A DNA stretch of 64,000 bases from Psammoneis japonica (taxonomy: Eukaryota), in the NCBI GenBank assembly GCA_008632985.1, contig QPGO01000153.1:62001-126000 (forward strand), in the 5' to 3' direction. The position numbers and the translations under genes are program-made. Every line of letters starts with the position of its first letter. The stretch's first letter is position 1. Below the pieces are notes generated by a model, which was not told the origin of the DNA, searched no databases, and saw only the letters and a program-made list of their open reading frames with translations. Positions 27,568 to 64,000 of this stretch are shown here, piece after piece.

Positions 27568-27594
27568 TCTCTCTCTCTCTCTCTCTCTCTCTCT
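27568..27594. repeat. (CT)n microsatellite
   Basis: About 13 TC units. Confidence 0.9.
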
Positions 27595-33356: not shown

Positions 33357-33369
33357 CACGCGTGTCCCA

Positions 33370-36300: not shown

Positions 36301-36530
36301 CCTCGGATGGGATTTGTCATCATCAGAGGATGAAGAGGAAGAACTGCTGCTTTCTTTGGGTGGCCCCTCCATTGTGGCAGGAGTGTCACTTTGATCTGGG
36401 ATCAGATCTTGGGTTTGCAACTCTTGGGCAACTGAGTGACACGTTGGTGAGCATCTCCAATGGCATGCCATTCGCAAAAAACTTTGGCCACAACCGGGAC
36501 AGAGAAGAGGGTTTCCGTCCATTGTAAATC
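33370..36530 (-). mobile_element. Plavaka-like (CACTA-related) DNA transposase pseudogene
   Basis: IYLDKT..GEPVIMT..WKPVG[C]LP..HTCLHVVLEPL..LITGDAKSGD..CRFC..DMMHLFENG, and downstream GWKLQKLHETLHL..NFDAG.GE..KDFFK; broken by stops and frameshifts. Family call is from recalled motifs, not a search. Confidence 0.7.
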
Positions 36531-37031
36531 AGACAACATTGACAGGGCCTTCATCAAGACTCATGCTCGTCGTCCTTGTCTTGTGGATGAGAAGGGAAAA
36601 AAAGAACAACATGCAAAAAATGGCGGGAAATTGGCAAACATTGCACTGTCTTCCAGATTGGGATGATTCTTGTGGGTGTGACGCATCTGCATTTTGATTT
36701 TTTATCTGGCATCCACAACGAACATTGTGCTTTTTATTTGCCATCAAAATGCAGGACATCATCTCCGTTGAAACGCAATGACAGCCATGTCAAAAAGTGA
36801 GTTGGGCTGTTCGTTGTCATGTGTGAACACATTTTCAAATTTCAATGTTGCTGACAACAACTCATGCAATGTTGTGGAGAAAAACAGAGTGCCTGGCTGT
36901 CTCAACACGACCCAAATGACGGTTGCACTGTTGGACAGTGCCACTCCTCTCATTGTTGCCGTGAAAAGATCAAGATGTCGTCTCCAGCACAACTGGCAAA
37001 GAAGAGAAAGAAAAATGAGACCATTGAGCCA

Positions 37032-40831: not shown

Positions 40832-41063
40832 GGCGGTCAGTTCGCAGGGTTTTCAAAAACTCTATGAATACAGCCGAGTCATGGGTCCTGCTGGGTCGTC
40901 CGGGTTACAGACCTCCCAAGCCGGGAGTGGTCCGGGCCGGTTGGCAGGCGGCGGCGAACGACCGGCGACCGGCGCAACAACAGCGAAATTATATTCATTG
41001 AACACCAGGAAGTGTCGTTGTTGCTCCTGTCGTTTCTACGTTTGAGATTGCGTTCTATTTGCA

Positions 41064-42020: not shown

Positions 42021-42336
42021 ATTGGTCTTTCAATAGATATGAGTGCGGCATTGATGAGGTCCCGATATATGGACGACCGGTCGAAAATTGTTAAGGACTG
42101 AAAGGTCGAAGCCAGCAATACCGGCACCACCATGGCGTCCGATCCTACCGCCACCGTCAACGACGGCTTCCTTTCTGTTGACGGGGGCTCCTTCCCTGCC
42201 GAATTTGATTTGCGAATTTCATCATTTGGAGGCAGAACGCTCTACTCGCAAGCTCGAGGTTCCCATGCAATGCTATAAAAAATTATAAACGATAAAGACA
42301 AATATTTCGCTTTCTTTCCATCTTTTTCAGAGTGCC

Positions 42337-42574
42337 GAGAACATTCTGTCATCGACCCGATCACTCGGGCAATCAGTGCGATGGTGGAGCCCGGGGACGA
42401 TGCATCGATCTGAATTGGTCTTTCAATAGATGTGAGTACGGCATTGATGAGGTCCCGCTTTATGGACGACCGGTCGAAAATTGTGAAGGACTGAAAGGTC
42501 GAAGCCATCAATGCCGGCACCACCATGGCGTCCGATCCTACCGCCACCGCCAAAGACAGCGTCCTTTCTGTTGA
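42337..42574 (+). repeat. Local duplicate of 41944-42182 (HNH gene 3' end and UTR)
   Basis: gagaacattctgtcatcgacccgatcac...tttctgttgac occurs twice. Confidence 0.9.
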
Positions 42575-44560
42575 CTTGCTCTGAGAGAGGAAGGGGGGCA
42601 GCTGCTGTGCACTGCAAAATGAGAAAAAGACCAAAGAGAGATGGGAAACATGCAACAGCTGACAATGGCACTTCTTTGTGCTTAGCATGCCTTCGCATTT
42701 TCTGAGTCCACTGTCCACATTGCTTGCATTGGACTGATGACATTTGTGCCAAGATCTGTCCTCTCCATGCACGCTGCATCGCATGGTGGTTTCAAGCTGT
42801 GTTTGACTGGCAGGGCAAGTGTGATGACTCTAAAAGTCACCCCGTTGAGCATGCAACAAATTTGTCCTTGATGAAGAGCTTTCAGCATGAGCTCTTCTCC
42901 ACACAAGGGGAGATGGGCAACCCCAACCCTCCGCAGGGTCCTGTCCTGAGCACAGGGTCTCTTGGTCTAAAGGAGTGTGCGGTGCTGCCTTGGGTGTGTT
43001 TTGGGATGCCGCCTGCTGACCATTGCACAAGAGGAACAAAAGCAAGGCCAAAACTGCAGGAAATGCCAGACCCTGCTCTCCAGCACTGGAGTGCAGTTCC
43101 CAAAAGGCACAGTGTTGTGCTTCCTACCCTGACATCACTTCAGTGACTCCCCAGGTCAGCCAAAGCAAGTCAAGCACACAATTCCCCCCTTGATGAGACT
43201 CCTGGGCAGTGATGCCCCAAAAGAACTGGAAGCAAGGAAGGCCTCCAAAACCTTCGCACAACACAAGCCAGTGAGTGACTCAAGTCACACAGCCTGTGCA
43301 CAGCAGCACAAAAAAGAGGGAAGCAAAAGAGCAATGTCCATGCAGTGCTGCCACATCTTGTGAGCAGGTCCAGCCACTCCCAACTTTTCTTTCTTCTTCC
43401 GTTGGTTGACTGCATCAATGTCATCTGCCACGACCTTGTGGGCAACAGCCCAAGAGTCATGCCCTCACCAAAAGGAATGACTCACATCACACATGTCTTG
43501 AATGTCCACAAGCAAAGTGATGTCAGCCACAACAGGGCAGGGCAATCATCACAAATGTTCCCCAGGAGGTCCTGCAGCAGAGCATGTTGAGATCCAGGGT
43601 TGTCAAAACCTTCCCGTCCAGGCTCAACACAGTGGGGCCTCTGGCACAACCATGCTCAGCTTGAATTGCAGCCACTGTTTCCACCCAACACCATGTGTTT
43701 GTTCCCAAACTTGTGGTGTTGACACTCGGGAGGAGGTGCTGCCACTCCCCTTGTTCTCCCTTGACCCATCCTGGCAGAGGCACAACAATGCACAAAGGAT
43801 GCTTGGGGAGATGGTGCGCCAATGCCGACAAGCCTGTCAACAGGCCTTCCGGCCCTCCAACAGCACACAGCTTGCCACAAAATGCAACTCCACTGCAAGG
43901 CACACAAACTGGCCCACCTCCATTGGGAAGCAATGTGCTTTTTCATCCAATCAGGGGAGGAGGAGATGCTGCATCACTTCTTCCACCTTTGCCACCTGGT
44001 CCAGGTGCCAGTCTTGGCCCATCCTCTTCTTGCACCCTGTCACAAAATGCTGAAACCACAACAATGCACAAGGGTCTTTGCATGTTTGCAGGTGCTGTTT
44101 TCCTTCAAGGTCCCCTGATGCAAGGGCTCTGGCATTTGCCTGAGCCGCGGCTTGTGCTTGATTTGAACAAGCTGTGCGCAACTTCCGGATGGTGTCAAAC
44201 TGGGTGTGGGCAGGTTGGCTGGTCAATGCACCAAAAACACCCAAAAATGACATTGTGAGGAGGATTGTCTCCTGTCACCATCACAACCACCAGCACATTG
44301 GGCCATTTTCTCTGGGATCACTTGCAGCAAAATGCGCACAGTGTGGGGTGGTGCAAACATGAGCGCACAAAAAACAATTTAATCTGTGAGCTGTTTGGCG
44401 TGCAGAACTGACCATGGGGTCACCAGCACTGGCCACCACCACCACAAATCACCATGTCATCAACAAGAAGGAAGAACTTTGTGTTGCTGCCGCCAAACAC
44501 ACAGTGAGAGCCAAATCTTCTAACACTGCAGCATGTGGCAAGAAACCAGGAACATTTTCA
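42575..44560. repeat. TpA/CpG-depleted degenerate element, family not recognised
   Basis: Sharp loss of TA and CG relative to both flanks. Confidence 0.6.
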
Positions 44561-44981: not shown

Positions 44982-47246
44982 ATGGAATCGTCTACAACCG
45001 ACACATCGTTTCCGTTGCGTTCCATCAATACCTTTGATAACACATCGTATCAAGCGGAACGCCGCTTGGCACGCAAAAAGCAAATGGAACAAATGGAGCA
45101 GGCGTTTGCCCGTGCGGGGACGCTTCGGGAAGAAGACTTTTCGTCGTCGGGCAGTGACATGCAATCCCTCACTTCGACACACACGGCTCCGGCTGCCTTT
45201 GGGGGGCGGTCGTCGTCTTCGGTCAAGCGTGCACGAGACATGGTGACGGATTTGTATTCGCCGTCGAAATCGAATCTGGCACCGCGTTCTCATGAAGAGG
45301 AAGAGTTGCAAACGCTGCGGCGTGAGAATTTTTTAATCATGGAAGATGTCGAGTTGCAGCAGCAACAGCCCTATGGTATTACCAAGGAAAACAGTCACCG
45401 TCGCTGTTGTTATTATTATTCACCCAGAGCATTGTATCACCGATGCTTTGGCAGCAACTCGAGAAAATTCTTGCTCTGTGTGGTGCTCTTTGTGATTTTG
45501 CCACTTCTGATTGCCGTGATTGTCGTGAGCACGAAAAAGAACAATGGCTCAAGTGGTAGTAGCAGTACTGCCGAGACGCGCTTGGAGCTCATTCCCGCCA
45601 TGGCGGTGTCTCCGTTGGACCAAGACCGTCACGATTCGATTCGTGCCAATGTGTTGGCACTGGACATTTCGACGCCAGAAGCGCTCGATACCACGGGCAC
45701 ACCGGCCAATCTTGCCTTGCGTTGGTTGACGGATTATGACAAGGCCAAGCTCGCGGTCGATCACTTGGCACTCAGTCAGCGTTTTGCTCTGGCGACGCTC
45801 TTCTTTTCGACCCACACCAAGACGAACGATGGCGATACCATTGTCATTGTGGAAAAGGCAGACGAAACATGGAGCAATATGGAACATTGGATGACGGAAA
45901 AGGGCATTTGTGTGTGGCACGGTGTGTCGTGTCCACCCATTATTGTGGGTGGACGAGAGGTAACGACCTACAACGACAATTCGGGCGTGCAAGAGTTGAA
46001 TTTGAACAATAACAATGTCCGCGGCAACATTCCCATGGAGGTTCGGGCTATGGAGAATTTGAAATTGTTGGATTTGGGGGGAAACAGTTTGCATGGTAGC
46101 ATTCCGACGCATGTGGGACATTTGCGGGCCTTGAGTGAGTTGAGACAAAGGGAGAGTTGGACTGGATACACTTTTGAGACTGTTTTGCTCACTGTTTTGA
46201 TCCTTTTTCCATCGTTCAGCCAACTTGTACTTTATGCAAAACAAACTCACGGGTTTTGTGCCTTCGGAATTGGGTGTCTTGACCGATTTGGAAAATTTTC
46301 ACGTTGGAAACAACCTCTTGGAAGGCCAGGTTCCGACGGAGATTTCCTTGCTCAAGAAGCTGGAGTCGTTTGGATTGGATCAGAATTATCTTTCGGGGGC
46401 ACTTCCGGATGTGTCCAAGTTTGATAAATTGAGTAAGTATTCAAAGCGAGTGCTGTTAACGGAAAGCTTCAGTTTACGTGATACTTATGCATGCTATTTT
46501 GTCACACTTTTACAGCGGCTCTCTATTTGGACAATAATGCCTTTAGCGGTTCCATTCCGTTTGAATGGTCCAGTCTTGTGTCTCTCAAGGATTTGCGCTT
46601 GAACCGAAACTACTTGACGGGAGAGTTGCCATCGACTCTGTTCAAGATGCCCCGTTTGGAACTCATGTATTTGGGAAACAATATCTTTACGGGTACTGTC
46701 CCAGATTTGTTTTCTGGAACACCCCGCTTGCTGGAGGTCCAGCTGTACAAGAATGAGTTTACGGGCTCCGTGCCGGCTTCGTTGGGATCGTTGAGTCTGT
46801 TGCGTCTCTTGTATTTGGACACAAACGACTTTTCGGGAGAGCTCCCGGATACCCTGGGTAACTTGGATGACTTGACGGCGCTTTATGCCTATGACAATTA
46901 CTTGGAGGGCCAGTTGCCCACGACGCTGGCCAAAATGAAGAATCTCAAGGACCTGCGGGTCGACCAAAACTCGTTGACTGGAACGATTCATACAGAAATG
47001 AGTCAGTTGATCAATTTGGAGTATCTTCATTTACATAGTAACGAGCTGACGGGTTCCGTGCCTGGCGAACTCCAGGAACTGGATCGCCTCAAGTCGTTCC
47101 GTTTTTATTGGAACCAATTTACCGGCACGGTGCCGGATCAAGTCTGTGCTCTCAAGTCAAAGCATCAACTCGCGTTTATCGCTGCTGATTGTGATGAAAC
47201 GGAAGGTAATATTGAATGCGAGTGCTGCAATGAGTGCTTTCCGTAA
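44982..47246 (+). CDS. LRR receptor-like membrane protein 4 (long cytoplasmic N-terminus)
   Basis: Exons 44982-46134, 46220-46432, 46516-47246; TM FLLCVVLFVILPLLIAVIVV; ends CECCNECFP*. Confidence 0.92.
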
Positions 47247-47475
47247 AGTTGAATGGTTGAGATGCATTGTTGGTAGTTGGAAAAGTAGACGAAGTTAAAG
47301 TTATGAACTTATATATTACCGCAAAGTCTTTGTCCCTTTGCAATCTATCGCATGTTTTTCTTCTTGTGGCTGCAAATCTTGAAGTTTCCGCACTGTCTTT
47401 TTCAGTCTTATTGACACCACACCGTGTTATAATTCCCACGCCTCATCTTGGATGGACTGCCCCAATCGAGAGAAA

Positions 47476-49300
47476 CCATGTCATCAGCAGACAATGAAGG
47501 CACTAGAAACACCATCTGTCACCCCTAAATGGTTTTCCAGAGTTTGCACTATCATTGCAAACATCCGAGCTTTACGCGGCACAAACTGCAAAGGGAATTG
47601 CACATGAGCCAGCAAACATGCTTCATGGACCACAGCCAAAAGACATTGACAAACACAATGGCCAAGTTGGCTCTGATTCAGAGTGCATTCAACTGAGGGT
47701 GCAAGAGGCAGAAAAAGTGGCCAGACCCAGCATCGGGATGTGCTGGCAATGGCAGTGGCTGTTTTGCAGCATCCAAAACACTTGCTTGCATCAACAAAAA
47801 TGATCAAGGCAACGCAACGGGGAAGGTGTTCAAAAGCAAAGCACAACCCACACCACAGCAAAGAAGCTTTCAATGGAAACAACTGCTTTCAGCAGATGGA
47901 AACTTGCTTGCTTGCATTTGATCATCTGAGAACAGCTGCAGCCAAGGCCAGCAGCACACCAATGAACATGGGGGGCACCACAGGTCATGAACAAGCCCGG
48001 AGTGCTCTCACCAACATGTTGGCCATTGCGTCTTGGCAGCGACAGCTCTGATGTCACAAGCACCTTGGCTTTGATGGAGGGTGCACACATCACCCAAGTT
48101 GTCCTTCCAACAAATGTTCCAGTGGTTGCTCTGGACATCAACGGAGAGACCACAAGTGTGAGATGTTTTGCCATGTGGTGCCTGTTTTGACAGTTTGGGG
48201 GATGTCTCTAGCCAGCTGTGCTTGCTGAAAAAAGTCTGCCTGTCAGTGCATTTGGGGGTTTTGCCAGTGCATTTTTATGTGCATGGACCAGGCCTGCAGG
48301 GAGCGTTGACCACTTGTCTTTGTTGATGTTGTGTGGTGCCTGCACAGTGTTGCTGTTGCACGCATGTGCGGGCAGTGGCGCGCCTGGCGTGCGCAGAAGC
48401 ACCAAGCACATGGAGCCCCACCGCTGGGGCTGCACTGCAGCGCATGGCACAGCAGCAGGGTGGCGGGGCCACCGGCGCCACAGATGACCATTGTGCTTGA
48501 TGGATTGTGCCATTTTGGAGGCTGCAGTGAGGTGCACAGACACTCTTTTTTTCAATTTGCCGCCAAAATGGCGCATCACACAAACTCACTTGTCGCTCGA
48601 TGTGTTTTTTCCAGTGTGGCTGTTTCATGTGCAGTTCATGACAAATTGCATTTGTTCAAAGCTGAGCATGTTTTTCAACTTGCCACACTGGCAACCCCAA
48701 TTTTGCAGCAGTTTTGAGCTCTTTCAAAAACAGCTCCATGCACACGTCGCAGGGAATTTGTCCATTTTTTGGGAAGTTCCCATGAGCTGTGGCGTCCTCA
48801 ATGGTCATTCTGCAAATCTGAGCAACACCTTTGCACCAGACAGCCCATGTCATTTCAAAATCCAAAGGACACACTTTCAAATGGTGACAGACACCCCACA
48901 CCCTGGCTGCCCGACCGACCGACCGACCCACACGAAAAAGTTTGCAGCTGCCAGCCGCTGAGTGGTCAATGAAGATGTCGACTCCATCCTGCATTCACCA
49001 AAACCCCCAAATGCACAGATTGGCAGACTCTTCCAGTGCAAATTCCACACAAGATTCTTCAGCCAGCAGCTGGCTGGAGACTTCCCCCAAGTTGAAGGAG
49101 CCTTCTTGGACAAACCAAAAACACGGGACGAAGAAGTGTGTGTGTGCTTGACTGCAGCTCTGCCATTGCTGAGCCAGAAGTTGAGTGCATCCTCATCAGG
49201 GCCAGGGCATTGGCACAGGGTGTTGAAAGCATCATCACCAGGTCAGGCGCAGAATCACCAACAAGAAAAAGACCAAGTAACTCCAGCTTGTCTGCCAGCT
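47476..49300. repeat. TpA-depleted degenerate insert between LRR genes 4 and 5 (duplicated at ~51643-53465)
   Basis: Begins where similarity to the gene 6 3' flank (~63440) ends; nearly no TA. Confidence 0.7.
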
Positions 49301-49567
49301 CTTGCAACTTTTGTGACAGGTTATGTTGCTTCGATTTTGACTGATGTTCGTTTTGAAGGCCGGTTGTCAAGATTCAAGTTGTCGAACAAAATAGAGCAAA
49401 CGAAGCAAAAAATCCAAAATCGACACCTTTCGCTCATGGAACAACAACAAACGAACTACAATTATTCTGTCTTGAAACAAAAGCGACACTCACGACACTC
49501 TCTCCGTTCTCCATGTCACTGAATTTCGCTCGCATGTGCATTTCATGTTATATGACCAAACAACAAC

Positions 49568-51412
49568 ATGACGAATTTGAGCACACTTAGCACCATTTTA
49601 CTGGCGTTGGGAAGTGTGTTTTTGTTGACGGGAATCATCACCACGGCGGTTTCCGTGGCCAATCAAAACAACAGCAATAATGATGAGGATAAGAAGAAGG
49701 ATGTGTCTAAACCATCAGGTGGAACAAATAATGGCGAGACACGCTTGGAGCTCATTCCCGCCATGGCGGTGTCTCCGTTGGACCAAGACCGTCACGATTC
49801 GATTCGTGCCAATGTGGTGGCACTGGACATTTCGACGCCAGAAGCGCTCGATACCACGGGCACACCGGCCAATCTTGCCTTGCGTTGGTTGACGGATTAC
49901 GACAAGGCCAAGCTCGCGGTCGATCACTTGGCACTCAGTCAGCGTTTTGCTCTGGCGACTCTCTTCTTTTCGACCCACACCAAGGTGAATAATGGCGATA
50001 CTAGCATTGTCATTGTGCAAAAGGCAGACGAAACGTGGAGCAATATGGAACATTGGATGACGGAAAAGGGCATTTGTGTGTGGCACGGTGTGTCGTGTCC
50101 ACCCATTATTGTGGGTGGACGAGAGGTAACGACCTACAACGACAATTCGGGCGTGCAAGAGTTGAATTTGAACAATAACAATGTCCGCGGCAACATTCCC
50201 ATGGAGGTTCGGGCTATGGAGAATTTGAAATTGTTGGATTTGGGGGGAAACAGTTTGCATGGTAGCATTCCGACGCATGTGGGACATTTGCGGGCCTTGA
50301 GTGAGTTGAGACAAAGGGCGAGTTGGACTGGATACACTTTTGAGACTGTTTTGCTCACTGTTTTTATTCTTTTTCCATCGTTCAGCCAACTTATATTTTA
50401 TGCAAAACAAACTCACGGGCTTTGTACCCTCGGAATTGGGTATCTTGACCGATTTGGAAAATTTTCACGTTGGAAACAACCTCTTGGAAGGCCAGGTTCC
50501 GACGGAGATTTCCTTGCTCAAGAAGCTGGAGTCGTTTGGATTGGATCAGAATTATCTTTCGGGGGCACTTCCGGATGTGTCCAAGTTTGATAAATTGAGT
50601 AAGTATTCAAAGCGAGTGCTGCTATCGGAAAGCTTCATTTTACATGATACTTATGCATGCGCTTTTGTCACACTTTTACAGCGGCTCTCTATTTGGATAA
50701 TAATGCCTTTAGCGGTTCCATTCCGTTTGAATGGTCCAGTCTTGTGTCTCTCAAGGATTTGCGCTTGAACCGAAACTACTTGACGGGAGAGTTGCCATCG
50801 ACTCTGTTCAAGATGCCCCGTTTGGAACTCATGTATTTGGGAAACAATATCTTTACGGGAACTGTCCCAGATTTGTTTTCTGGAACACCCCGCTTGCTGG
50901 AGGTCCAGCTGTACAAGAATGAGTTTACGGGCTCCGTGCCGGCTTCGTTGGGATCGTTGAGCCTGTTGCGTCTCTTGTATTTGGACACAAACGACTTTTC
51001 GGGAGAGCTCCCGGATACCCTGGGTAACTTGGATGACTTGACGGCGCTTTATGCCTATGACAATTACTTGGAGGGCCAGTTGCCCACGACGCTGGCCAAA
51101 ATGAAGAATCTCAAGGACCTGCGGGTCGACCAAAACTCGTTGACTGGAACGATTCATACAGAAATGAGTCAGTTGATCAATTTGGAGTATCTTCATTTAC
51201 ATAGTAACGAGCTGACGGGTTCCGTGCCTGGCGAACTCCAGGAACTGGATCGCCTCAAGTCGTTCCGTTTTTATTGGAACCAATTTACCGGCACGGTGCC
51301 GGATCAAGTCTGTGCTCTCAAGTCAAAGCATCAACTCGCGTTTATCGCTGCTGATTGTGATGAAACGGAAGGTAATATTGAATGCGAGTGCTGCAATGAG
51401 TGCTTTCCGTAA
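49568..51412 (+). CDS. LRR receptor-like protein 5 (short N-terminal signal/anchor)
   Basis: Exons 49568-50300, 50386-50598, 50682-51412; starts MTNLSTLSTILLALGSVFLLTGIITTAVSVA. Confidence 0.9.
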
Positions 51413-53731
51413 AGTTGAATGGTTGAGATGCATTGTTGGTAGTTGGAAAAGTAGACGAAGTTAAAGTTATGAACTTATATATTACCGCAAAGTCTTTGTC
51501 CCTTTGCAATCTATCGCATGTTTTTCTTCTTGTGGCTGCAAATCTTGAAGTTTCCGCACTGTCTTTTTGCAGTCTTATTGACACCACACCGTGTTATAAT
51601 TCCCACGCCTCATCTTGGATGGACTGCCCCAATCGAGAGAAACCATGTCATCAGCAGACAATGAAGGCACTAGAAACACCATCTGTCACCCCCAAATGGT
51701 TTTCCAGAGTTTGCACTGTCATTGCAAACATCCGAGCTTTACGCGGCACAAACTGCAAAGGGAATTGCACATGAGCCAGCAAACATGCTTCATGGACCAC
51801 AGCCAAAAGACATTGACAAACACAATGGCCAAGTTGGCTCTGATTCAGAGTGCATTCAACTGAGGGTGCAAGAGGCAGAAAAAGTGGCCAGACCCAGCAT
51901 CGGGATGTGCTGGCAATGGCAGTGGCTGTTTTGCAGCATCCAAAACACTTGCTTGCATCAACAAAAATGATCAAGGCAACGCAACGGGGAAGGTGTTCAA
52001 AAGCAAAGCACAACCCACACCACAGCAAAGAAGCTTTCAATGGAAATGACTGCTTTCAGCAGATGGAAACTTGCTTGCTTGCATTTGATCATCTGAGAAC
52101 AGCTGCATCCAAGGCCAGCAGCACACCAGTGAACATGGGGGGCACCACAGGTCATGAACAAGCCCGGAGTGCTCTCACCAACATGTTGGCCATTGCGTCT
52201 TGGCAGCGACAGCTCTGATGTCACAAGCACCTTGGCTTTGATGGAGGGTGCACACATCACCCAAGTTGTCCTTCCAACAAATGTTCCAGTGGTTGCTCTG
52301 GACATCAACAGAGAGACCACAAGTGTGAGATGTTTTGCCATGTGGTGCCTGTTTTGACAGTTTGGGGGATGTCTCCAGCCAGCTGTGCTCGCTAAAAAAA
52401 GTCTGCCTGTCAGTGTGTTTGGGGGTTTTGCCAGTGCATTTTTATGTGCATGGACCAGGCCTGCAGGGAGCGTTGACCACTTGTCTTTGTTGATGTTGTG
52501 TGGTGCCTGCACAGTGTTGCTGTTGCACGCATGTGCGGGCAGTGGCACCTGGTGTGCGCAGAAGCACCAAGCACATGGAGCCCCACCGCCGGGGCTGCAC
52601 TGCAGCGCATGGCACAGCAGCAGGGTGGCGGGGCCACCGGCGCCACAGATGACCATTGTGCTTGATGGATTGTGCCATTTTGGAGGCTGCAGTGAGGTGC
52701 ACAGACACTCTTTTTTCAATTTGCCGCCAAAATGGCGCATCACACAAACTCACTTGTCGCTCGATGTGTTTTTTCCAGTGTGGCTGTTTCATGTGCAGTT
52801 CATGACAAATTGCATTTGTTCAAAGCTGAGCATGTTTTTCAACTTGCCACACTGGCAACCCCAATTTTGCAGCAGTTTTGAGCTCTTTCAAAAACAGCTC
52901 CATGCACACGTTGCAGGGAATTTGTCCATTTTTTGGGAAGTTCCCATGAGCTGTGGCGTCCTCAATGGTCATTCTGCAAATCTGAGCAACACCTTTGCAC
53001 CAGACAGCCCATGTCATTTCAAAATCCAAAGGACACACTTTCAAATGGTGACAGACACCCCACACCCTGGCTGCCCGACCGACCGACTGACCCACACGAA
53101 AAAGTTTGCAACTGCCAGCCGCTGAGTGGTCAATGAAGATGTCGACTCCATCCTGCATTCACCAAAACCCCCAAATGCACAGATTGGCAGACTCTTCCAG
53201 TGCAAATTCCACACAAGATTCTTCAGCCAGCAGCTGGCTGGAGACTTCCCCCAAGTTGAAGGAGCCTTCTTGGACAAACCAAAAACACGGGACGAAGAAG
53301 TGTGTGTGTGCTTGACTGCAGCTCTGCCATTGCTGAGCCAGAAGTTGAGTGCATCCTCATCAGGGCCAGGGCATTGGCACAGGGTGTTGAAAGCATCATC
53401 ACCAGGTCAGGTGCAGAATCACCAACAAGAAAAAGACCAAGCAACTCCAGCTTGTCTGCCAGCTCTTGCAACTTTTGTGACAGGTTGTGTTGCTTCTATT
53501 TTGACTGATGTTCGTTTTGAAGGCCGGTTGTCAAGATTCAAGTTGTCGAACAAAATGGAGCAAACGAAGCAAAAAATCCAAAATCAACACCTTTCGCTCA
53601 TGGAACAACAACAAACGAACTACGGTTGTTCTGTCTTGAAACAAAAGCGACACTCACGACACTCTCTCCGTTCTCCATGTCACTGAATTTCGCTCGCATG
53701 TGCATTTCATGTCATGTGACCAAACAACAAC

Positions 53732-56700
53732 ATGACGAATTTGAGCACACTTGGCACCATTTTACTGGCATTGGGAAGTGTGTTTTTGTTGGCGGGAATC
53801 ATCACCACGGCGGTTTCCGTGGCCAATCAAAACAACAGCAACAATGATGAGGACAAGAAGAAGGATGTGTCTAAACCATCAGGTGGAACAAATGATGGCG
53901 AGACACGCTTGGAGCTCATTCCCGCCATGGCGGTGTCTCCGTTGGACCAAGACCGTCACGATTCGATTCGTGCCAATGTGGTGGCACTGGACATTTTGAC
54001 GCCAGAAGTGCTCGACACCACGGGCACACCGGCCAATCTTGCCTTGCGTTGGTTGACGGATTGCGACAAGGCCAAGCTCGCGGTCGATCACTTGGCACTC
54101 AGTCAGCGTTTTGCTCTGGCGACTCTCTTCTTTTCGACCCACACCAAGGTGAACAATGGCGATGCTGGCATTGTCATTGTGCAAAAGGCAGACGAAACGT
54201 GGAGCAACATGGAACATTGGATGACGGAAAAGGGCATTTGTGTGTGGCATGGTGTGTCGTGTCCACCCATTGTTGTGGGTGGTCGAGAGGTGATGACCTG
54301 CAACGACAATTCGGGCATGCAAGAGTTGAATTTGAACAACAACAATGTCCGCGGCAACATTCCCATGGAGGTTCGGGCCATGGAGAATTTGAAATTGTTG
54401 GATTTGGGAGGAAACAGTTTGCATGGCAGCATTCCGACGCATGTGGGACATTTGCGGGCCTTGAGTGAGTTGAGACAAAGGGCGATGACAGAAATTGAAG
54501 GCAAATGGCAAGAATTCAAACAATGACTCCTTGCTGCTGTCTAAATGGCAGATGAGTCTCCGCTCAGAGACCGTTGCAGGAGCCGAAAGGCGTGCAAGTC
54601 GGTGTGATCGGGCTACTGTCATCATTCTTGTGAGCCTTGTGGCTCGAAAGCAAACTGCATCACGCGTGAACGCGCGGAGCTAAAGCACACAAAACTGTGC
54701 GCGGCAAACTAAACAGCGCGCGACACTTCGCGCGCACCCAAATCCTGTTCTAATCCTGTCACTCCCCAGTTTGCTTGAGGAGTCACAGAAACAGATCCGA
54801 CTTCGGATGGAATGAAGTTCCAGAACATGAGGGGGCAGAGAAGGTCCCAGATTTGGGAGCAACCCCAATGCTTGCTGAGAATGTCAGCAGGGTTGCGGGA
54901 GCCTTCGATGAAGTGGAACTCAAGGCAACCAGAGGCAATTGCCTCACGCACATGGTGGAACGACAGTGCGGTGTGTCGTTTGTGTAACTTGGAGTGCGGG
55001 ATGGTGGCACTGTCTACAACCGACTTGTTGTCACCGAACATGTAGCTGACATTGCAGATCGGGATGCCAAGGTGGCGCAGGGTGATGCGCAGGTCAACAA
55101 TCTGCTCGACACAAGTCCTTGCGGCAACAAATTCAGACCCGCAGGTCGCAGTCTCCATGGTGGCTTGCTTCTTAGAGAACCAATCAGCCGGGAATTTGTT
55201 GAGGAAGTGGAGCATTCCCATGACAGAGCGTCCGGTGAGCATGCAATGGCACAAGTTTGCATCGACGCAGTGGGTGGCAGTGACGAACTTGCCAAGGGGC
55301 GGTGGAACGTCCTTCGGGATCATCTCTTCTGCCTCGCCGCACACGGAATGCATCCATTAACAGGCCGGAGCAGGGAGATCCGAATGGTCGGGCTCTTCCG
55401 TACGAACGCGGAGAGCACCGTGTCGCATCTTGGAGAGGCACCCACAGACGCGTTTGGCATGATCCAAGTGGCCTTGACGGGGCGCAGCTCGGAAGCTAGA
55501 GAGTGACATGACGGCCGTGGCAATGTCAATTCGACCAAGGGACACTGCCCATTGGAGTGAACCAACAAGAGACTGGAACTTGTGAATGCCATCGGGCTCC
55601 AGCAGCTTGGAAGTGTCCAGTTCGGGGTGGTCACCCTTCTCCAGAGGTGGCAGGGCATTGGTGGCAGGTTTCTCCCCAAACAGTCGGGTGCAACTGTCGA
55701 CCATGCGCTTGATGCACTTGCGCGGAGACAGGCACAAGGTGTCGTCAGGATCCCGGGAAAAGTCGCAACCCAGATGGAACTCAATGGGTCCCGCACCCTT
55801 GAGCTTGAACTTGTGCTTTTCCGTGAGAGCATCGACAAAAGATTGAGGGTCCTTCATGGCAATGGCGAGGTCATCCACATAAACGGCAATGCATTCACAG
55901 TGGTCGCCATTCCTGCGCATCCAAATGTCGGGTTCGGCGCGGCAGGGGAAGAAGCCTTCAGCTCGCAGGCAGTCGGCGAAGCGCTCGTGCCAGCAGAGAC
56001 CGGAGCTGCGCAGTCCATGCAGGGCCTTGTGGATGACAAGGATGTGTCCTTCAAGTTTGCCAAATTCGGGTCCGGCTGCAATGTAGAGCTTCTCTTTGGT
56101 GGTGGCTTCAAGGCAGGCATTGCCAATGTTGGTGGCCCATGTCTCCAACTCGTTGAGTTCGGCCAGGAAAATCATCAGCCGAAGGCCACGGAGGGAGACT
56201 GCTCCGGAGTGGACACCATCGACAGGTACGTCCGTGAGGTGCCCATCGGCTACAAGTCGTGCCTTGTGGCGACCGTCGTGTTTCACGTCGCACACTGGGT
56301 GCACTCGGATCTTCTTGTGTCCTGCAGGAGGAGTGGAAGACTCGAAGGGCCCGCAGTCATGGAAGACTTCATATTCGTCGAGTTGGTCCATCTCGAGATT
56401 AGTTGCGTCTCCCCATTTGCGGTTGCCGTTGCGCTCGTCTAGTGACATGGTGTGTTTGCAGTTCCGGGGAACTTCGCATCCACACTTGCAGCGAGGTGCA
56501 GTGCGGAAGGAGCGAAGCTTGGCTTGGTTGGCCATGCAAAATGGCTTCTTTTGGCGCCTCGCGATGGCGCGGAACCGCTTCCAGCCATCCGTGTCGAGAA
56601 GTCCGTTCTCTCGTGCATAGATGGCGCAGGTGACGGGGTCGTCCTTGGCGATGATGGCAAGAGGCTCGGACGTGATCTCCCCAATTTCCCATTCAAGCAT

Positions 56701-59700
56701 GATGTTGTAGCTCGAGCCTTTCCAGGTTGGGTCGTGAGGCTTCAGAGGTCCTTCGTGTGACACGATGCGTCGAAATTTCCAAACAGCAGTGTCTTCGTCT
56801 TCTTGCTCAATGTGATTCACGATGTCGTTGCAGGCAAGGACTTCCTCGCATTCGTCGTTGTTGACGGAGCAGACGAACTTAGTGAGCTCGGGATTGCTGT
56901 TCACTTTCCATTCGTGGTTTTCGACGGCCTTGACAGTGCGAGCTCTGTGGCGTTGTCCGTCCTCTTGTGGCTGCATGAGGAAGGTGCGTCCGATGATGTC
57001 TTGCGGATCGAAAACTGGCATCTTGGGTGTCCTGATCTCCCCATCAGGAGAATCGACGGGGTTGTCGTCATGGCGAGATTTGATGATGGGTTCAGGTGGC
57101 TCCCCATCAGGAGGATCAAGACGCAGGTTTCGAACGGCAGGATCGGTGGCAGCGGAGCGTACGTTGGACCGGCAGAGGATCTTCTGAGTCTCGTCAGAGA
57201 GAATCTTGAAGGTCATCTGGTGGCCGACGTGCTCAGCAATGCCAACGAAGCGTCCACGCAACTCACGGGATTTGGACGGCCAATCGGAGTCATCAAGGTG
57301 GAAGTGCACGGGTTCCCACCAGTGAAAGCGAAGCAATGGGCTGATGTCCGGGGTGGAGCCAGTGAGAGTCTCGAGGGGCGTGCGCCAGTGGAGACGTGGG
57401 GATGCTGCATGGTTGAGCATGAAGCACACATGCATGAGCGCCAGCAGCCATGTGTGGGCGGGTGAACCAAAACGATCCATGACAGTGTTCGCCATGCACT
57501 TCACGGTCTGGTGTCGACGCTCGGCAAAGTTTTGGTGTTGCTGGTGAGGCTCACTTTGCCAGCTGGAGATGAAGAGGGCTCGTAGGATCCCGAGCACTTT
57601 GTTGCTGATCTCAACTTGAGCACGGTCGCCAATGAGTTTGGGTGGGGCACCACGCTCACGGATTTGATCCTCGAGTGTGTTGACAAACTCTTTGTCCGTC
57701 TTGGTGCCGCAGACGTCAGTGACGGTAGACTCGGTGCCAACAAACAGTTGGGCACTGGTGCAACCAGAGTCGATGGCCGGGGTGTTGGCACAAACGGTGT
57801 CAGTGGCGACAGGCTCGTTGCGGCGGTGCACATTAAGGGCGGGGTTGGGTGATTTGCAGGCCTTCCTAAGGTGTGTGCCGGCGGGCATGCGGGCGCACTG
57901 CGTGGTGCAGTCAAAAGTACGACGGACCGCATCGGTGGGCAGGAAGCCAAAGCAAGGCCGAAGAGACTCGAAGGGGGGGTCCTTGGGCTGTGCAGTGCGC
58001 TCCGGGGGCGGAACGTTGTCGTCCTTGGGGTCAATCGCGTGCAGATGACACTCGTAGAACACGTCGTCATTCGGAATGAGGTGATCATCGAGGGCGGACG
58101 CGTGATCGGCAGACAAGGAAGTGGACATGATGGTCTCGTTGACAATGACACGATGACGGCAGTTGCCGCATTCGTCAAATGGGTTGGCAGTGGGATCGTC
58201 CTGCAGGTCAGAGATCGCATCGCACCACTGGTCGTCGTCAGTGACAGAGTGATCGAGGACGGAAGGATCCCATGTGTCATCACCGGTGAGGATGACATGG
58301 GGCAGGGTGTCCCATTCGGCGTCAGTGTGAGGTCGCATGGCAACACAAGGCAGGCCGGCCTTGATGTCAATGGGGATGACACAGCCATCAGGAGTGGCAA
58401 TGCGTTGCAAGCCATTGGGCACCTTGACAGAGCAATTGTTGACATCCTGTTTGTGCCATTCGAGCTGGCCACAGGAATGGATGGTCTTGCCCTTGCCCGT
58501 GCATGCGCACTGATGGAGGATGGCGATGACGGGACCACGCTGGGTCTCAATGACGGCACCAGCGGTGACAATGGGGATGTCCACCAATTGATGGTCGTCA
58601 ATGCCCTGAATGTCGACTTGGCGAGAGGTGCGTGCAATGACGCGAACGTCGTCACCAGCAATGCCGCCGTTGGCCCCACGATCGACTGGAGCACCAGTGC
58701 GTGTGGAGCGATGAGCAGAGGCAGAGCAAATGACATTGTGGTTGTTGGCACGACGGTGAGTGCGGCCGTTGAGTTCTGTGTCATCGGTGAGAGCTGGCGG
58801 AGCAGTGGGAGCGGCGGATGGCCCCGGTCGACTGGCGTTGGGGGCTTGGTTAGGAGACAACAGGCGTTGCAGATCACCGGGTGGCAGTGGCTTGCGCTTG
58901 GTGAGGTGCGCCAGGATGGGATCATCCGAAGTGGCGTCCACATTTGGAGCGGGTTCACCAGAGTCAGCAGGAGTCATGTTGGACAAGTTGACATCACCGT
59001 CACTCCCAAGGCGTTGGTCGTGAAGGTTGGCCGTAATGGACTCATGGCAGTTGCTGGCTCGCGGGTTGCTGGGAGGCGGATGAGAATGCTCAAGGATGAT
59101 CGCCTTGGAGGAATGGGGCAACGAATCCCAAATCCGTTGGTGGTCGGGAGGGAGACGTTTCCATTGGTCACCGGCGAGGCTGGGACCACGGGTGCAGGCA
59201 GCATTGGCCTGAAGGACGTCATGGCACGTCGGGGAGCTCGAGGTGTCGTCTTGGGTTGAAACGTGCTGTCGCATTGAGCTGCCGCGGAGAGGAGCAAGCC
59301 ACAGCATTGATTGCATGTGAGGCTCTTGCCACTCTGCGTGCGATGCTGATCAGCTTGGTTCTTGACAGCACGGAGTTCCTCGACAGGGTGTGCGGCATTC
59401 TCGAGCATGACGCGCTTCTGTCCTTCAGAGAAGTGGTCACTGGCCGGGATGAGTGCCTCGTGCTTGCGCAACTGATCTTGCCAATGAAGGATGAACCCGT
59501 GGGTCGGACCCTTCCAAGTGCCATCACCAAGACGTGCGGTGGTGAGGTGCGTTGGCAAGGTGGAGGACTCGACAGATGCGCGGGTGGAAGCGAGCGCACA
59601 CTCAGACAGGGCGCGGCAGACGGTCTGGGCATCAGAAGACCCCACATTTTCGCGGATGAGAGCCTTGCCCTTGTCGGTGAGAAGGATGCGTTTGAAGATG

Positions 59701-62700
59701 GCGAACATGCACTTTTGCTGTTCAGCAAAGAGCAGTTTGTCTTTGGGGCTGGTCGGTTTGTACGACGAGTCTAGAGTGCACTCGACGTCTTGGGCACGGG
59801 CTTGTGCCACAAGTGAGGTGTGCCAAGTGTGCCACTGCTTGTCGGATTTGAGAGCCGTGAAAGCGGTGGGATCACGCTTGATGCCTCGCTTGAAGTCCCG
59901 TGCCGGGTCGCGTGCCTTGGTCGGGTTGGTGACATGCGGAGGTGCGAGGGGTGAGCTGCCGATGGACACAGAAGACATGTGGTCGGGGCTGAGGCGGCAG
60001 GCAAGGAACTCGTCATGCGTGAACAACGAGGAGTCATTGGCAACGTCAAGACCTTTGTGTGCTTTGACAATGTACAGACCAACTGGAGCTGCTAACATGT
60101 TCTTATAACCACGGGGCAAAGGGATCACATTGGTGCCGTTGTCGCACTCAAGCGAGTCGATTTGGGACGGTATGAACGTGAATAGTTCTTGATGCGAGTC
60201 CGCGCCGTCTTGGGCCAAAGCCAAACGAAGAGGGCTCCCAGCACCTTGGGCAAGCACGGTTCCAACAACGTGCTCGAAACCATCGGTTTGTTGCTGACGA
60301 GTGAGAACCATGGCAGACAAAATTGGTGTCAGGACAAGCAATTCTTGTTGGGAAGCGAAGGTGGACTTGAAGCTTGGGTGAGAATGGACTTGACTTGAAA
60401 CGGACTTGACTTGAAATCTTGAACTGCCTTAAAATCAGAAGTCGCCGGGTTTTGCTGTCCCGTTCGTTGTCAAGTGCTAAACTTCCCATCCGGTCCGCAG
60501 AGTTGTGCCGGCACGTCCGAACCCGCAGCTGGTGGCGCTTTGGGTTGCTTACGAGCGGAGCAGCGGGTTGCAAACCCCTGCAGGCAAGCTGACCAGAGGT
60601 GGACAAGACCCCTGAACCGTTCTCACTTTGTGTCGGTTGGATTTCCCGATCAGGCTGGCCAGTTGATGCAGGCGTCAGGCGCTGTGGACGAATGAACAAA
60701 CGCGGGAAAGCACCCTCGCCCCAACGTAGACTGCAATCACGGCTGCTTGCTCTCACAGTCGTCCTCGTGGACCTGGCAGAACTGTGGAGCACCAGCAGTC
60801 CGGGGCGGATCAGATGCAATGGACTCGGTGTGCTTGTAGAGTGGCAGCAAAACCGCAGTCCGAAGAGTGGGTGCAGGTTCTTGGCCGTGAAGACATGTGT
60901 GTGTGCACATGTCCTCAGCGACAAAGATCCTTGAACATGCAGGGTTCTTGACCGTTGACCGATGAACAGGCATGTCAAGGGATGAGGATCAAGGATGGAC
61001 TTGGACATGACCGTTGAATGCATGTCTTCAGCGATCAAAGGCAGTGTGATCAATCCAGACATCCAGCGGCAAGGAGACTTGATGGTGACGTTAACTTCCT
61101 GCCGATGCCCTGGCATTGAATGCGCGCAGACTTGCCGATGCATGCAGAACATGCACGGAGGTCCACGCAGAATTGAGGTGGCGTTGTTGGCAAATCAACG
61201 ACGACGATGGCGGTTGCTCAATGGGTTGACAATGAGCAAGACTGTTGATCTGACAGAAATTGAAGGCAAATGGCAAGAATTCAAACAACAACTCCTTGCT
61301 GCTGTCTAAATGGCAGATGAGTCTCCGCTCAGAGACCGTTGCAGGAGCCGAAAGACGTGTGAGTCGGCACAATCGGGCTGCTGTCATCATTCTTGTGAGC
61401 CTTGTGGCTCGAAAGCAAACTGCATCACGCGCGAACGCGCGGAACTAAAGCACACAAAACTGTGCGCGGCAAACTAAACAGCGCGCGATGCTTCGCGTGC
61501 ACCTAAATCCTGTTCAAATCCTGTCAGGCGAGTTGGACTGGGTGCACTTTTGAGACTGTTTTGCTCACTGTTTTTGTTCTTTTTCCATTTTTCAGCCAAC
61601 TTGCACTTTGTGCAAAACAAACTCACGGGCTTTGCACCCTCGGAATTGGGCATCTTGACCGATCTGGAAAATTTTCACGTTAGAAACAACCTCTTGGAAG
61701 GCCAGGTTCCGACGGAGATTTCCTTGCTCAAGAAGCTGGAGTCGTTTGGATTGGATCAGAATCATCTTTCGGGGGCACTTCCGGATGTGTCCAAGTTTGA
61801 TAAATTGAGTAAGTGTTCAAAGCGAGTGCTGCTGTGGGCGCGCTGAATTAATCTCACGTATTGGGCGCAACCTTCGCGGTGAAGGGGGGGGGAGGGGGGG
61901 AATCGTAAAATCACGTGTTATTCTGTAAAACACGTGCTTCGTCGTGTAAAACACACATTTTGGCTCATTATCCTATATCTTACGTAGGATCCTACGTAGC
62001 AGGCTTTTTCGAGCATTCGTCGGTCTGTCGTCGGTCTGTCGTCGGTCTGTCGTCGGTCATTTTTGATGGCAAACTCAAACCAAAAGGAACCCGGAAGTGA
62101 ACATTCACTGTCAGTGCGCGCGATTTGAATGCGCAAACACCAAAAACTGCTCGACTCGACTGTCGAAAGCACCATGACGACCCAAGCCGCTGCTTGTTAC
62201 TAGGGCGTTTTACAAAACAGGGGTGTTTTACACATTTTGACAATCTGGGGTGAAAGTGGGGTCAGGGGCACCGCCCAATACGTGAGATTAATTCAGTGCG
62301 CCCTATCGGAAAGCTTCATTTTACATGATACTTATGCATGCGCTTTTGTCACACTTTTACAGCGGCTCTCTATTTGGATAATAATGCCTTTAGCGGTTCC
62401 ATTCCGTTTGAATGGTCCAGTCTTGTGTCTCTCAAGGATTTGCGCTTGAACCGAAACTACTTGACGGGAGAGTTGCCATCGACTCTGTTCAAGATGCCCC
62501 GTTTGGAACTCATGTATTTGGGAAACAATATCTTTACGGGAACTGTCCCAGATTTGTTTTCTGGAACACCCCGCTTGCTGGAGGTCCAGCTGTACAAGAA
62601 TGAGTTTACGGGCTCCGTGCCGGCTTCGTTGGGATCGTTGAGTCTGTTGCGTCTCTTGTATTTGGACACAAACGACTTTTCGGGAGAGCTCCCGGATACC

Positions 62701-63093
62701 CTGGGTAACTTGGATGACTTGACGGCGCTTTATGCCTATGACAATTACTTGGAGGGCCAGTTACCCACGACGCTGGCCAAAATGAAGAATCTCAAGGACC
62801 TGCGGGTCGACCAAAACTCGTTGACTGGAACGATTCATACAGAAATGAGTCAGTTGATCAATTTGGAGTATCTTCATTTACATAGTAACGAGCTGACAGG
62901 TTCCGTGCCGGGCGAACTCCAGGAACTGGATCGCCTCAAGTCGTTCCGTTTTTATTGGAACCAATTTTCCGGCACGGTGCCGGATCAAGTCTGTGCTCTC
63001 AAGTCAAAGCATCAACTCGAGTTTATCGCTGCTGATTGCGATGAAACGGAAGGTAATATTGAATGCGAGTGCAGCAATGAGTGCTTTCCGTAA
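53732..63093 (+). CDS. LRR receptor-like protein 6; Copia in intron 1, MITE in intron 2; exons 1-2 hypermutated but open (may be a pseudogene)
   Basis: Exons 53732-54464, 61596-61808, 62363-63093; GT/AG sites intact; TDYDK->TDCDK, TYNDN->TCNDN, LYFMQ->LHFVQ, QNYLS->QNHLS. Confidence 0.8.
54486..54761 (-). repeat. 3' LTR of Copia copy 2 (276 bp)
   Basis: Adjacent to the PPT-like tract (ctccccag on +). Confidence 0.95.
61251..61526 (-). repeat. 5' LTR of Copia copy 2 (276 bp)
   Basis: Direct repeat of 54486-54761. Confidence 0.95.
61836..62303. mobile_element. 468-bp MITE, 32-bp TIRs, 3-bp TSD (possibly PIF/Harbinger-type)
   Basis: TIR GGGCGC(G/A)CTGAATTAATCTCACGTATTGGGCG; flanks TGT (61833-61835) and TAT (62304-62306); empty site gctgc-tat-cgg in gene 5 (~50623). 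Confidence 0.92.
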
Positions 63094-64000
63094 AGTTGAA
63101 TGGTTGAGATGCATTGTTGGTAGTTGGAAAAGTAGACGAAGTTAAAGTTACGAACTTACATATTGCAGCAAAATATTTGTCCTTGTGCAATCTATGGGAT
63201 GTTGTTCTTCTTGTGCCCGCAAATCGTGCACTTTCTGCACTAGCTTTTTGCGGTCTGCTTGAGCCCAGCAGGACTCCCGTCAATGCTCTTTACAAGCACC
63301 TTGAATTGATTCAGCATCTCGACAAATGACCGTAGTTGGTAGAAAAAGGAGAAAAAGTGCGTATCAGCAAAGCCTGATACCGCATAGATGGTGCTGTAAT
63401 TCCCACACCTCATCTTGGATGGACCGCCCAAATCGAGAGAAACTGTCGTTGACGCTTCGTTGGTGGAATTCGAGTTGCAGCTGTGCGCTCACAAAGGACT
63501 CAAGACAACTCGTTGCTGAGGATCAAACAATCATGCCGCCGGTGGATCTCCGTCGGTCGCATTGAGTCCGAACACTTTAGTCGAAATGATTGAAAACGTC
63601 TTGGACTCGGTGGATCATGTACTCCTCATCCCATCTGCAGCTGTGGCGGTCAACCCATAATTGGTGGACAGGACTACATTCCATGACGGACAAGATCAAA
63701 AAGATCCGAAAGCGGATTGTAGACCTAGACGAGGATACTGACTTTGAAGTTAGCCGTAAGAACAAGGCAACTAAGGATGCCATTGGCGCGTGTGCCGCTA
63801 CCAATCGCTTCATTGCCGGATCCGGTCTCTTGGCATGCGATGATACGGCACAAAGAGTAAAGGAGCTGCCTTACAAGGACAAGGCGTGAAGGTCGAAGAA
63901 AAAATGAAGCGGCACTAGCTAGAATGTTGTAACGACGCAATGCGCAACAGCATTCTATGTAAGCTCGTCGCACCATCTTGTTTTTGATCTCGTTTCCGCA

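Follow-up and report, generated by a model that had tools for sequence, protein, structure and literature searches.

The 64,000-nt window analysed here spans positions 62,001-126,000 of contig QPGO01000153.1 from the Psammoneis japonica assembly GCA_008632985.1, and all positions below are given in window numbering. It contains a tandem array with a period of ~4165 bp, each unit of which carries one leucine-rich repeat (LRR) receptor-like gene. Unit 1 (45566-49728, forward strand) holds most of gene 4 and served as a second control copy, and unit 2 (49729-53893) is the transposon-free copy one repeat unit upstream of unit 3. The third unit is interrupted twice, by a retrotransposon that we call TE2 and by a miniature inverted-repeat transposable element (MITE), and its parts follow in the order 53894-54485, TE2 (54486-61526), 61527-61833, MITE (61834-62302), and 62303-63256. 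Gene 4 is full length on the forward strand, running from a start at 44982, outside unit 1, to 47246; genes 5 and 6 start inside their unit. We found that the parts of gene 6 next to TE2 have lost most of their TpA dinucleotides to TpG or CpA, as has TE2 itself, while the transposon-free copies of the gene have kept theirs.

Genes 5 and 6 have three exons each, gene 6 having been modelled by homology with gene 5. The transposon-free control, gene 5 (49568-51412, forward strand), has exons at 49568-50300, 50386-50598, and 50682-51412, separated by introns of 85 and 83 nt. Gene 6 (53732-63093, forward strand), its LRR receptor-like paralogue, has exons at 53732-54464, 61596-61808, and 62363-63093. 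Its intron 1 is 7131 nt long (85 nt in gene 5) and contains TE2, inserted 21 nt into the intron, while intron 2, at 554 nt (83 nt in gene 5), contains the MITE. TE2 is a hypermutated Copia-type long terminal repeat (LTR) retrotransposon of 7041 bp in reverse orientation. Its direct 276-bp LTRs (54486-54761 and 61251-61526) have TG..CA ends and are 94% identical, with 17 of 276 positions differing, and a 5-bp target duplication, GGCGA, borders the element at 54481-54485 and 61527-61531, where units 1 and 2 have a single GGCGA. The minus strand encodes a Copia-type reverse transcriptase (Pfam RVT_2, E = 1.5e-22) and has a pol open reading frame (ORF) at 55357-59316. The ratio of observed to expected TpA within TE2 is 0.15, and its G+C content is 56.5%, compared with ~48% in its surroundings. 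A second copy of the retrotransposon, TE1 (13809-19889, 6081 bp), lies in the opposite orientation, on the forward strand, and is also hypermutated. With their LTRs, TG..CA ends, target duplication, and Copia-type reverse transcriptase, TE1 and TE2 are both Ty1/Copia elements.

Each side of TE2 was compared with the transposon-free copy one unit upstream (53400-54480 against 49236-50316, and 62303-63150 against 50622-51470). The hypermutated 5' flank, 53412-54485, runs from the upstream region of gene 6 through exon 1 to 21 nt into intron 1, and the hypermutated 3' flank, 61527-61815, takes up the remainder of intron 1, then exon 2 and the beginning of intron 2. The end of intron 2 and exon 3 (62303-63150, forward strand) make up the unmutated part. 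In the 5' flank (53400-54480), 22 of 25 TpAs had become TpG or CpA, and in the 3' flank (61527-61833) 9 of 11, compared with 0 of 36 on the exon 3 side (31/36 in the flanks vs 0/36; Fisher p = 3.4e-15). By interval, the losses were 4/5 in 53401-53700, 6/8 in 53701-53900, and 12/12 in 53901-54480, then 7/7 in 61527-61680, 2/4 in 61681-61833, and 0/36 in 62303-63150. The opposite pattern, a TpA on the transposon side only, was seen 0 times in the 5' flank and once in the 3' flank. CpG had changed to TpG or CpA at 8/61 sites in the 5' flank, 0/12 in the 3' flank, and 1/46 in exon 3. A sequence-only reading of this stretch had counted by hand ~20 TpA and ~7 CpG losses in 53400-54485, had noted several more changes at 61532-61835, and had described exon 3 as essentially unmutated; its hand counts proved accurate, and the other two statements agree with the figures above.

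The two flanks contain 51 substitutions: 31 A:T>G:C at TpA, 9 G:C>A:T at CpG, 6 other A:T>G:C, 2 other G:C>A:T, and 3 transversions. A:T>G:C changes therefore make up 37 of the 51, and 31 of these 37 fall at TpA. Calculated per base, they affect 31 of 72 A/T bases inside TpA but 6 of 668 others, a 48-fold difference (p = 6e-29). Transitions outnumber transversions 34:2 in the 5' flank, and the 3' flank has 5 off-motif A>G/T>C changes besides its TpA losses. None of the flank TpA sites (0/36) reads CpG in the mutated copy. When the three copies are aligned over the 588 bp adjoining the element, the transposon-bearing copy C has 18 private changes (11 TpA-type, 5 CpG-type, and 2 other), compared with 11 in copy A, of which 5 are transversions, and 1 in copy B. 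The genic parts of units 1 and 2, where there is no transposon, are 98.4% identical over 1985 aligned bases, with a transition:transversion ratio of 19:12, and differ at 1/65 and 4/68 TpAs. These comparisons support a reach into host DNA of 0.3 to 1.1 kb, with a mutated zone that is contiguous with TE2 and ends within ~0.3 kb on the 3' side.

Because a comparison of three copies alone cannot root the tree, outgroups were brought in: the three distant paralogues in the window (at 5430, 9415, and 23004) and 11 outgroup Copia polyproteins, aligned from the top of the best 120 of 1145 matches. The Tyr of a DYD motif (Y111 in gene 5) is Tyr in all three distant paralogues and Cys in gene 6, and that of a YNDN motif (Y190 in gene 5) is Tyr in the one paralogue aligning there and Cys in gene 6. 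A Val kept in all three distant paralogues is Met in gene 6, through CpG>CpA. At the 31 columns with Tyr in at least 9 of the 11 outgroup polyproteins, TE2 has Tyr at 3, Cys at 18, His at 7, Phe at 2, and Ser at 1, while for other residue classes it keeps 85-100% of conserved columns. Tyr accounts for 0.5% of the TE2 protein, compared with 3.3-4.0% in its relatives. TAY>TGY and TAY>CAY correspond to Tyr>Cys and Tyr>His, and TpA is therefore the ancestral state; judged from these alignments, the polarity from TpA to TpG or CpA is secure. The earlier claim that the changes are directional and lie in the transposon-bearing copy held with the paralogues, with the outgroup transposon proteins, and with the LTRs.

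Among the four LTRs of TE1 and TE2, one may carry TpA where the others carry TpG or CpA at the same site, and two adjacent TpAs are both TpG in one LTR and both CpA in another. An element integrates with two identical LTRs, so the differences arose in the chromosome: the change happens in place and after insertion, and it has hit the host flanks too. Over 6012 aligned bases, TE1 and TE2 share 94.15% identity, rising to 99.58% in purine/pyrimidine coding; in the same coding the LTR pairs are 99.64% identical, with 1 transversion per 276-bp pair. These identities indicate that the elements are young and that their divergence is nearly all due to this process and CpG decay. The differing dinucleotides comprise 74 cases of TG vs CA, 18 of TA vs TG, 14 of TA vs CA, and 103 of CG vs TG or CA, and there are 69 further single differences, 16 of them transversions. 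TE1 and TE2 were mutated independently, from a source with normal TpA content. We infer that, site for site, TpA loss proceeds roughly ten times faster than CpG decay (~88% of TpA lost vs ~11-13% of CpG). TG and CA outcomes alternate along the element, with no long runs, and there was no sign along the element of processive action on a single strand.

The polyprotein relatives of TE2 are 1700-1900 aa long and 49-61% identical to it (best 120 of 1145 matches); the TE2 frame ends at 55357, ~330 residues short of 1850-aa relatives. About 1 kb of TE2 (59500-60519) has no counterpart in TE1 (7041 vs 6081 bp). An apparent 25-bp extension past the element ends was merely a shared pyrimidine-rich run, and a purine/pyrimidine-coded self-BLAST of the window found no further old repeats. 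Past the right LTR of TE1, at 19890-20400, we observed only 5 TpA in 500 bp, followed by a normal density (~8 per 200 bp). This segment is the start of an ORF upstream of an HA-domain gene (20822-21484, PF03457), and it may be a second short case of spill-over, here without a control copy. A literature search on the HA domain in diatoms returned nothing useful.

The base that follows TpA also appears to matter. The 31 changed A in the flanks are followed by T (15), C (8), G (4), or A (4), and the unchanged A on the other strand by A (13), T (11), C (4), or G (3); a 3' pyrimidine thus accompanies 23/31 changed A, a bias that is marginal in the flanks alone (pyrimidine vs purine, Fisher p = 0.07). 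TpAs that survive in the TpA-poor domains (n = 168) were compared with those elsewhere (n = 1059), and contexts with a 3' purine on both strands were 3.0- and 3.2-fold enriched, while 3' T contexts occurred at 0.09- to 0.47-fold, an up to 8- to 11-fold depletion. In TE2, Tyr>Cys exceeds Tyr>His (18 vs 7, p = 0.04), which fits a pyrimidine preference because the sense-strand A of a Tyr codon always precedes a pyrimidine. The process probably prefers T-A-T, then T-A-C, over T-A-purine. TpA is self-complementary, so the same data can be read as R-T-A with T as the target.

A 200-bp TpA map and dinucleotide ratios across the window delimit TpA-poor tracts with sharp edges at ~12.1-20.4 kb (with TE1), 25.3-40.8, 42.6-44.4, 47.6-49.2, and 51.7-61.7 kb. 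TpA observed/expected is 0.02-0.15 in these tracts, with TpG+CpA at 1.4-2.0, compared with TpA at 0.5-0.7 in genic DNA; the TpA frequency in normal DNA of the window is ~3.9% (1059 TpA in ~26.9 kb). In the tract at 51.7-61.7 kb, TE2 and the 5' part of gene 6 are continuous with a relic that lies in the unit 2 spacer. This older, TpA-free relic (51740-53400) adjoins the mutated 5' flank, and the same relic lies at ~47600-49200 in unit 1. It is TpA-free in both units, with 2 TG-vs-CA double differences between them. The 15.5-kb block at 25300-40780 has a TpA observed/expected of 0.02-0.1 and long ORFs on both strands; in its oldest-looking part, 26-31 kb, CpG has also been lost (observed/expected 0.06-0.2), and there is no Pfam match. 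The block is presumably old, fully decayed transposon or viral DNA. No transposon domain was found in Pfam for the spacer relic (2 long ORFs) or for the 25-41 kb block (9 long ORFs). TpA-free tracts yield long spurious ORFs, because missing TpA makes stop codons rare. The sole Pfam match among those long ORFs is to an HNH_2 endonuclease (ORF 41046-42017, E = 2.6e-7), and a 239-bp tandem duplicate, 94% identical, at 41944-42575 overlaps the end of that ORF.

The MITE (61834-62302) in intron 2 of gene 6 is 469 bp long, has ~31-bp terminal inverted repeats, and occurs nowhere else in the window; units 1 and 2 (genes 4 and 5) lack it. Although it lies 307 bp from the hypermutated LTR, it is unmutated, with 19 TpA and 36 CpG; either the domain ends before the MITE, or the MITE arrived later.

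The gene 6 frame is open over 558 codons, and its splice-site dinucleotides are kept, as the sequence-only reading had stated. This survival is uninformative, because no stop codon can arise through A>G/T>C, and among the CpG changes CGA>TGA alone would create one. Compared with gene 5, 21 synonymous and 20 non-synonymous codons differ across the coding sequence, with 16 synonymous and 17 non-synonymous codons in exons 1-2. All four Tyr codons of exons 1-2 are changed in gene 6 (Y111C, Y190C, Y248H, and Y301H), two of them conserved across paralogues. TpA loss in these exons is complete whatever the codon position, and there is no sign of selection. The proposal that such leakage diversifies surface receptors adaptively finds no support here, and collateral damage is the simpler reading; most likely, gene 6 represents collateral damage to a redundant, 5'-truncated paralogue.

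Metagenome contigs were scanned with the polyprotein alignment, which yielded 78 related loci, 6 of which were examined at the protein level. TpA observed/expected was at least 0.41 in 76 of the 78, and the remaining two were L021 (0.31) and L077 (0.02). L077 (2766 bp, 3 TpA) has, at 35 Tyr positions, His at 12, Phe at 10, Cys at 8, Tyr at 1, and others at 4. The intermediate locus L021 (2759 bp) has, at 39 Tyr positions, Tyr at 14, Cys at 9, His at 6, and others at 10. Cys or His was found at 0/82 Tyr positions in L001, 1/39 in L035, 1/32 in L070, and 2/26 in L064. The same signature is thus present on related elements in independent metagenome assemblies (L077 and L021). An exact 38-base LTR word gave 0 matches in the metagenome contigs.

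The best explanation, and in our view a probable one, is in-place TpA hypermutation in transposon-containing domains that overlap adjacent host DNA, a process of the type described in B. natans (Mettrop et al., bioRxiv 10.64898/2026.01.13.699255). A process at the DNA level would act in place on the A:T pairs of TpA steps and convert them to G:C, giving TpG or CpA. It would be confined to sharply bounded domains with transposon DNA, where it would run almost to saturation, and ordinary CpG decay would proceed alongside at a much lower rate. One such domain (~51.7-61.8 kb) would comprise the old relic, the young TE2, and 0.3 to 1.1 kb of the host DNA alongside. Within gene 6, exons 1 and 2 and intron 1 would have been rewritten but not exon 3, and the near-identical genes 4 and 5, free of transposons, would have escaped. 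The target would be set by the silenced or foreign domain and not by sequence duplication. The signature, its polarity, its post-insertion timing, the limits of the domains, and the independence from duplication are observations at this locus. The enzyme could be a DNA adenine deaminase, as proposed in the B. natans preprint, or, given that both strands of a TpA step read TpA, the change could follow a thymine-modifying route. The guide may be silent chromatin, DNA methylation, or RNA, and chromatin spreading from the transposon, as proposed from the sequence-only reading, may account for the reach. The 3' flank is most simply read as spill-over from TE2, and the TE2 insertion itself may have caused the change in the 5' flank as well. 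More tentatively, and somewhat short of what we would expect to hold, this could be a domain-limited DNA editing defence of diatoms that, after an element lands, turns essentially every T-A-Y step of that element, on whichever strand, into T-G-Y, extends by one to several nucleosomes into the gene alongside, and is shared between Rhizaria and stramenopiles.

Several observations weigh against this explanation. The evidence comes from a single locus in a single window, and the 3' base preference is, as noted, marginal in the flanks. The 5' flank sits between two transposon-derived blocks, which makes the source of its change ambiguous. In the read comparison, which covered 53300-54800 in the DNA runs X1 and X2 and in run X3, neither X1 nor X2 (the only deep DNA runs found) contained any word specific to the mutated copy. 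These runs did contain very abundant LTR sequence and sequences identical to units 1 and 2 at variable places; the share of sampled words found, 0.32, is that expected from paralogous words alone (0.329 of 31-mers). Their contigs at 53300-54800 were unit-1/2-like, and none among the matches listed bridged the flank and the LTR. Either the mutated copy is missing from that isolate, or the mutated letters are absent from the X1/X2 reads, and the pattern suggests strain-level polymorphism for the mutated gene 6 or for the insertion. In the unrelated run X3, one 151-nt short-read contig (depth 2) is identical to the mutated copy over 54375-54485, with 3/3 derived letters, and then runs on, past an unoccupied insertion site holding a single GGCGA, into a 3' flank whose first 30 nt retain their TpAs. 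At least the last 111 bp of the 5' flank therefore exist in mutated form without TE2. The same contig means that the derived letters exist in short-read data, and it sets the polarity of the first changes in the 3' flank. Its two informative parts lie on either side of 73 bp shared by every copy, where a 31-mer graph could have joined two loci.

This contig is what would be seen if the relic and the 5' part of gene 6 had already been silent and TpA-purged when the Copia element landed at the edge of the domain, with only ~0.3 kb on the 3' side mutated through the insertion. Integration directed by silent chromatin is known for yeast Ty5, and it would also fit the position of both elements, since TE1 and TE2 each border a longer TpA-poor block on its right-hand side (12093-13808 beside TE1 and 51740-54485 beside TE2). 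However, the identical relic in unit 1 leaves gene 5 unaffected, with 25 TpAs intact in 49236-50316, and the TpA and CpG losses of the 5' flank match those inside the element, both of which favour a causal role of TE2. At 8/61, CpG loss in the 5' flank is not above the ~11% per copy that we infer for the element, and so gives no sign of longer exposure, while the contig itself has a depth of 2 and may be a join of two loci. We regard prior silencing as less likely than the main explanation, but as a serious alternative. The TE-centred targeting proposed from the sequence alone stands in so far as the mutated zone is contiguous with TE2 and ends ~0.3 kb beyond it on the 3' side; the contig with a mutated 5' flank and no TE2 does not agree with it.

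A technical origin is improbable. An artefact of base-calling or consensus, in which modified TpA in silent chromatin is read as G or C by a long-read base-caller, would account for the lack of mutated words in X1 and X2, for nearly complete conversion in sharp domains, and for a choice between TG and CA that looks random from site to site. Yet the X3 contig has the derived letters, TpA-purged relatives (L077 and L021) occur in independent metagenome assemblies, and in the old blocks CpG is depleted too (observed/expected 0.06-0.2) and protein similarity is gone altogether. If two strands with errors were combined by majority at each position, some of the 36 flank TpAs should read CpG, whereas none does, and in B. 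natans the process was measured with short reads (10.64898/2026.01.13.699255). Mutation of the duplicated genes and the multi-copy element triggered by repeats, in the manner of repeat-induced point mutation (RIP), is less probable still, even though the LTR depth in X1 is very high and RIP leaks into neighbouring single-copy DNA. The direction is opposite to that of RIP, with TpA destroyed and not made, and the 98%-identical tandem units 1 and 2 (4.1 kb) and the three-copy exon 3 are unmutated. As the sequence-only reading had concluded, duplication is not the trigger, for the transposon-free duplicates are clean. Equally hard to credit are ADAR-like A-to-I editing of the element RNA before reverse transcription, GC-biased gene conversion, or a greater age of unit 3, although all of the changes raise G+C content and a 5' U preference is typical of ADARs. 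This preference is also mentioned in the B. natans preprint (10.64898/2026.01.13.699255). The host flanks were mutated though never reverse-transcribed, and the two LTRs of an element, which start out identical when it integrates, differ at 17/276 positions with independent TG/CA outcomes. Biased conversion would not give 48-fold TpA specificity, and copy C has only 2 private changes outside the TpA and CpG types in 588 bp.

The closest known system is that of B. natans, where, in mutation-accumulation lines, 230 of 231 mutations in integrated giant-virus and virophage regions were A>G/T>C, all at TpA, at a rate ~1000 times background (10.64898/2026.01.13.699255). According to the same preprint, reverse-transcriptase and DDE domains are over-represented in TpA-depleted, CpA+TpG-enriched clusters of that genome, whose reported TpA frequency is 6.0%, and the authors put forward an ADAT2-like DNA adenine deaminase as a hypothesis. 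As far as the preprint text describes it, that system resembles ours in its A>G/T>C transitions on TpA giving TpG or CpA in local domains of foreign DNA, in the long-term trace of TpA depletion with CpA+TpG enrichment, in the presence of reverse-transcriptase sequences among the depleted ones (here, two Copia copies), and in that single-copy DNA can be a target. It differs in that B. natans is a chlorarachniophyte, while the host here is probably a diatom (a stramenopile), and the targets here are LTR retrotransposons and relics. TpA observed/expected is 0.02-0.15 here, compared with 0.45 for the B. natans viral region as given there, and CpG>TpG/CpA changes accompany the process here (9/51 flank substitutions), unlike in the B. 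natans account. The preprint text, supplements aside, does not mention flanks, neighbours, trinucleotides, or stramenopiles, so that spill-over into host exons and a 3' base preference are not described in that text. In our literature search the signature was reported only in that preprint, and neither for diatoms nor in host flanks. New at this locus are a spill-over reaching 0.3 to 1.1 kb, the near-saturation, and the T-A-Y preference.

RIP in ascomycetes changes C to T, makes TpA, and needs duplicated sequence and a sexual stage; it inactivates transposons and can leak into adjacent genes. The process at this locus is similar in being a defence-like transition process that hits transposons and spills into neighbouring genes. 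Unlike RIP, it destroys TpA, leaves transposon-free duplicates untouched, and raises the G+C content of the element. ADAR and APOBEC enzymes make context-dependent deaminase transitions on RNA or replication intermediates, crippling mobile elements and leaving host flanks untouched, whereas here LTR pairs diverged after integration and host exons were mutated. CpG methylation of diatom LTR retrotransposons has been described (Maumus et al. 2009, PMC2806351), and decay of 5-methylcytosine in such elements resembles the minor CpG>TpG/CpA component here (103 element sites, and 8/61 in the 5' flank). That route cannot yield TpA>TpG/CpA, and the text of that paper available to us makes no mention of hypermutation, RIP, or point mutation.

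The locus probably adds a second, distant lineage to those with TpA hypermutation, and the TpA-purged metagenome relatives support this. Three near-identical gene copies, one of them with a transposon, form an internal control that sets a foreign or silent domain against the repeat as the trigger, with a measurable reach of 0.3 to 1.1 kb and a sharp edge. The apparent 3' base preference (T-A-T > T-A-C > T-A-R) is a constraint that any candidate enzyme must reproduce. LTR divergence is unusable for dating insertions in such genomes, being 6% in full coding and 0.4% when only transversions are counted, and TpA-free tracts give long spurious ORFs in all frames. If the explanation is true, each new insertion would be a local, context-specific mutator of adjacent exons, turning every Tyr codon into Cys or His, and a process common to Rhizaria and stramenopiles would point to an old and widespread eukaryotic system.

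The array genes belong to a larger set, as at least six LRR receptor-like paralogues lie on the forward strand of the window, at 5430-8400, 9415-11795, 23004-25199, 44982-47246, 49568-51412, and 53732-63093. A homologue search with exon 3 of gene 5 gave 121 matches, all at or below 51% identity and none close. The N-terminal part of gene 4 gave 6 matches, the best named one being from Seminavis robusta (26% identity), and for the homologue P0124, 50% identical to gene 4, the top clusters have mostly Bacillariophyta members. Together with the HA-domain gene and the TpA frequency of normal DNA (~3.9%, compared with the 6.0% reported for B. natans), these matches point to a diatom, though short of proof. 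In four of the LRR paralogues (those ending at 11795, 25199, 47246, and 51412), a TpA-poor block follows within ~100-350 bp of the stop codon.

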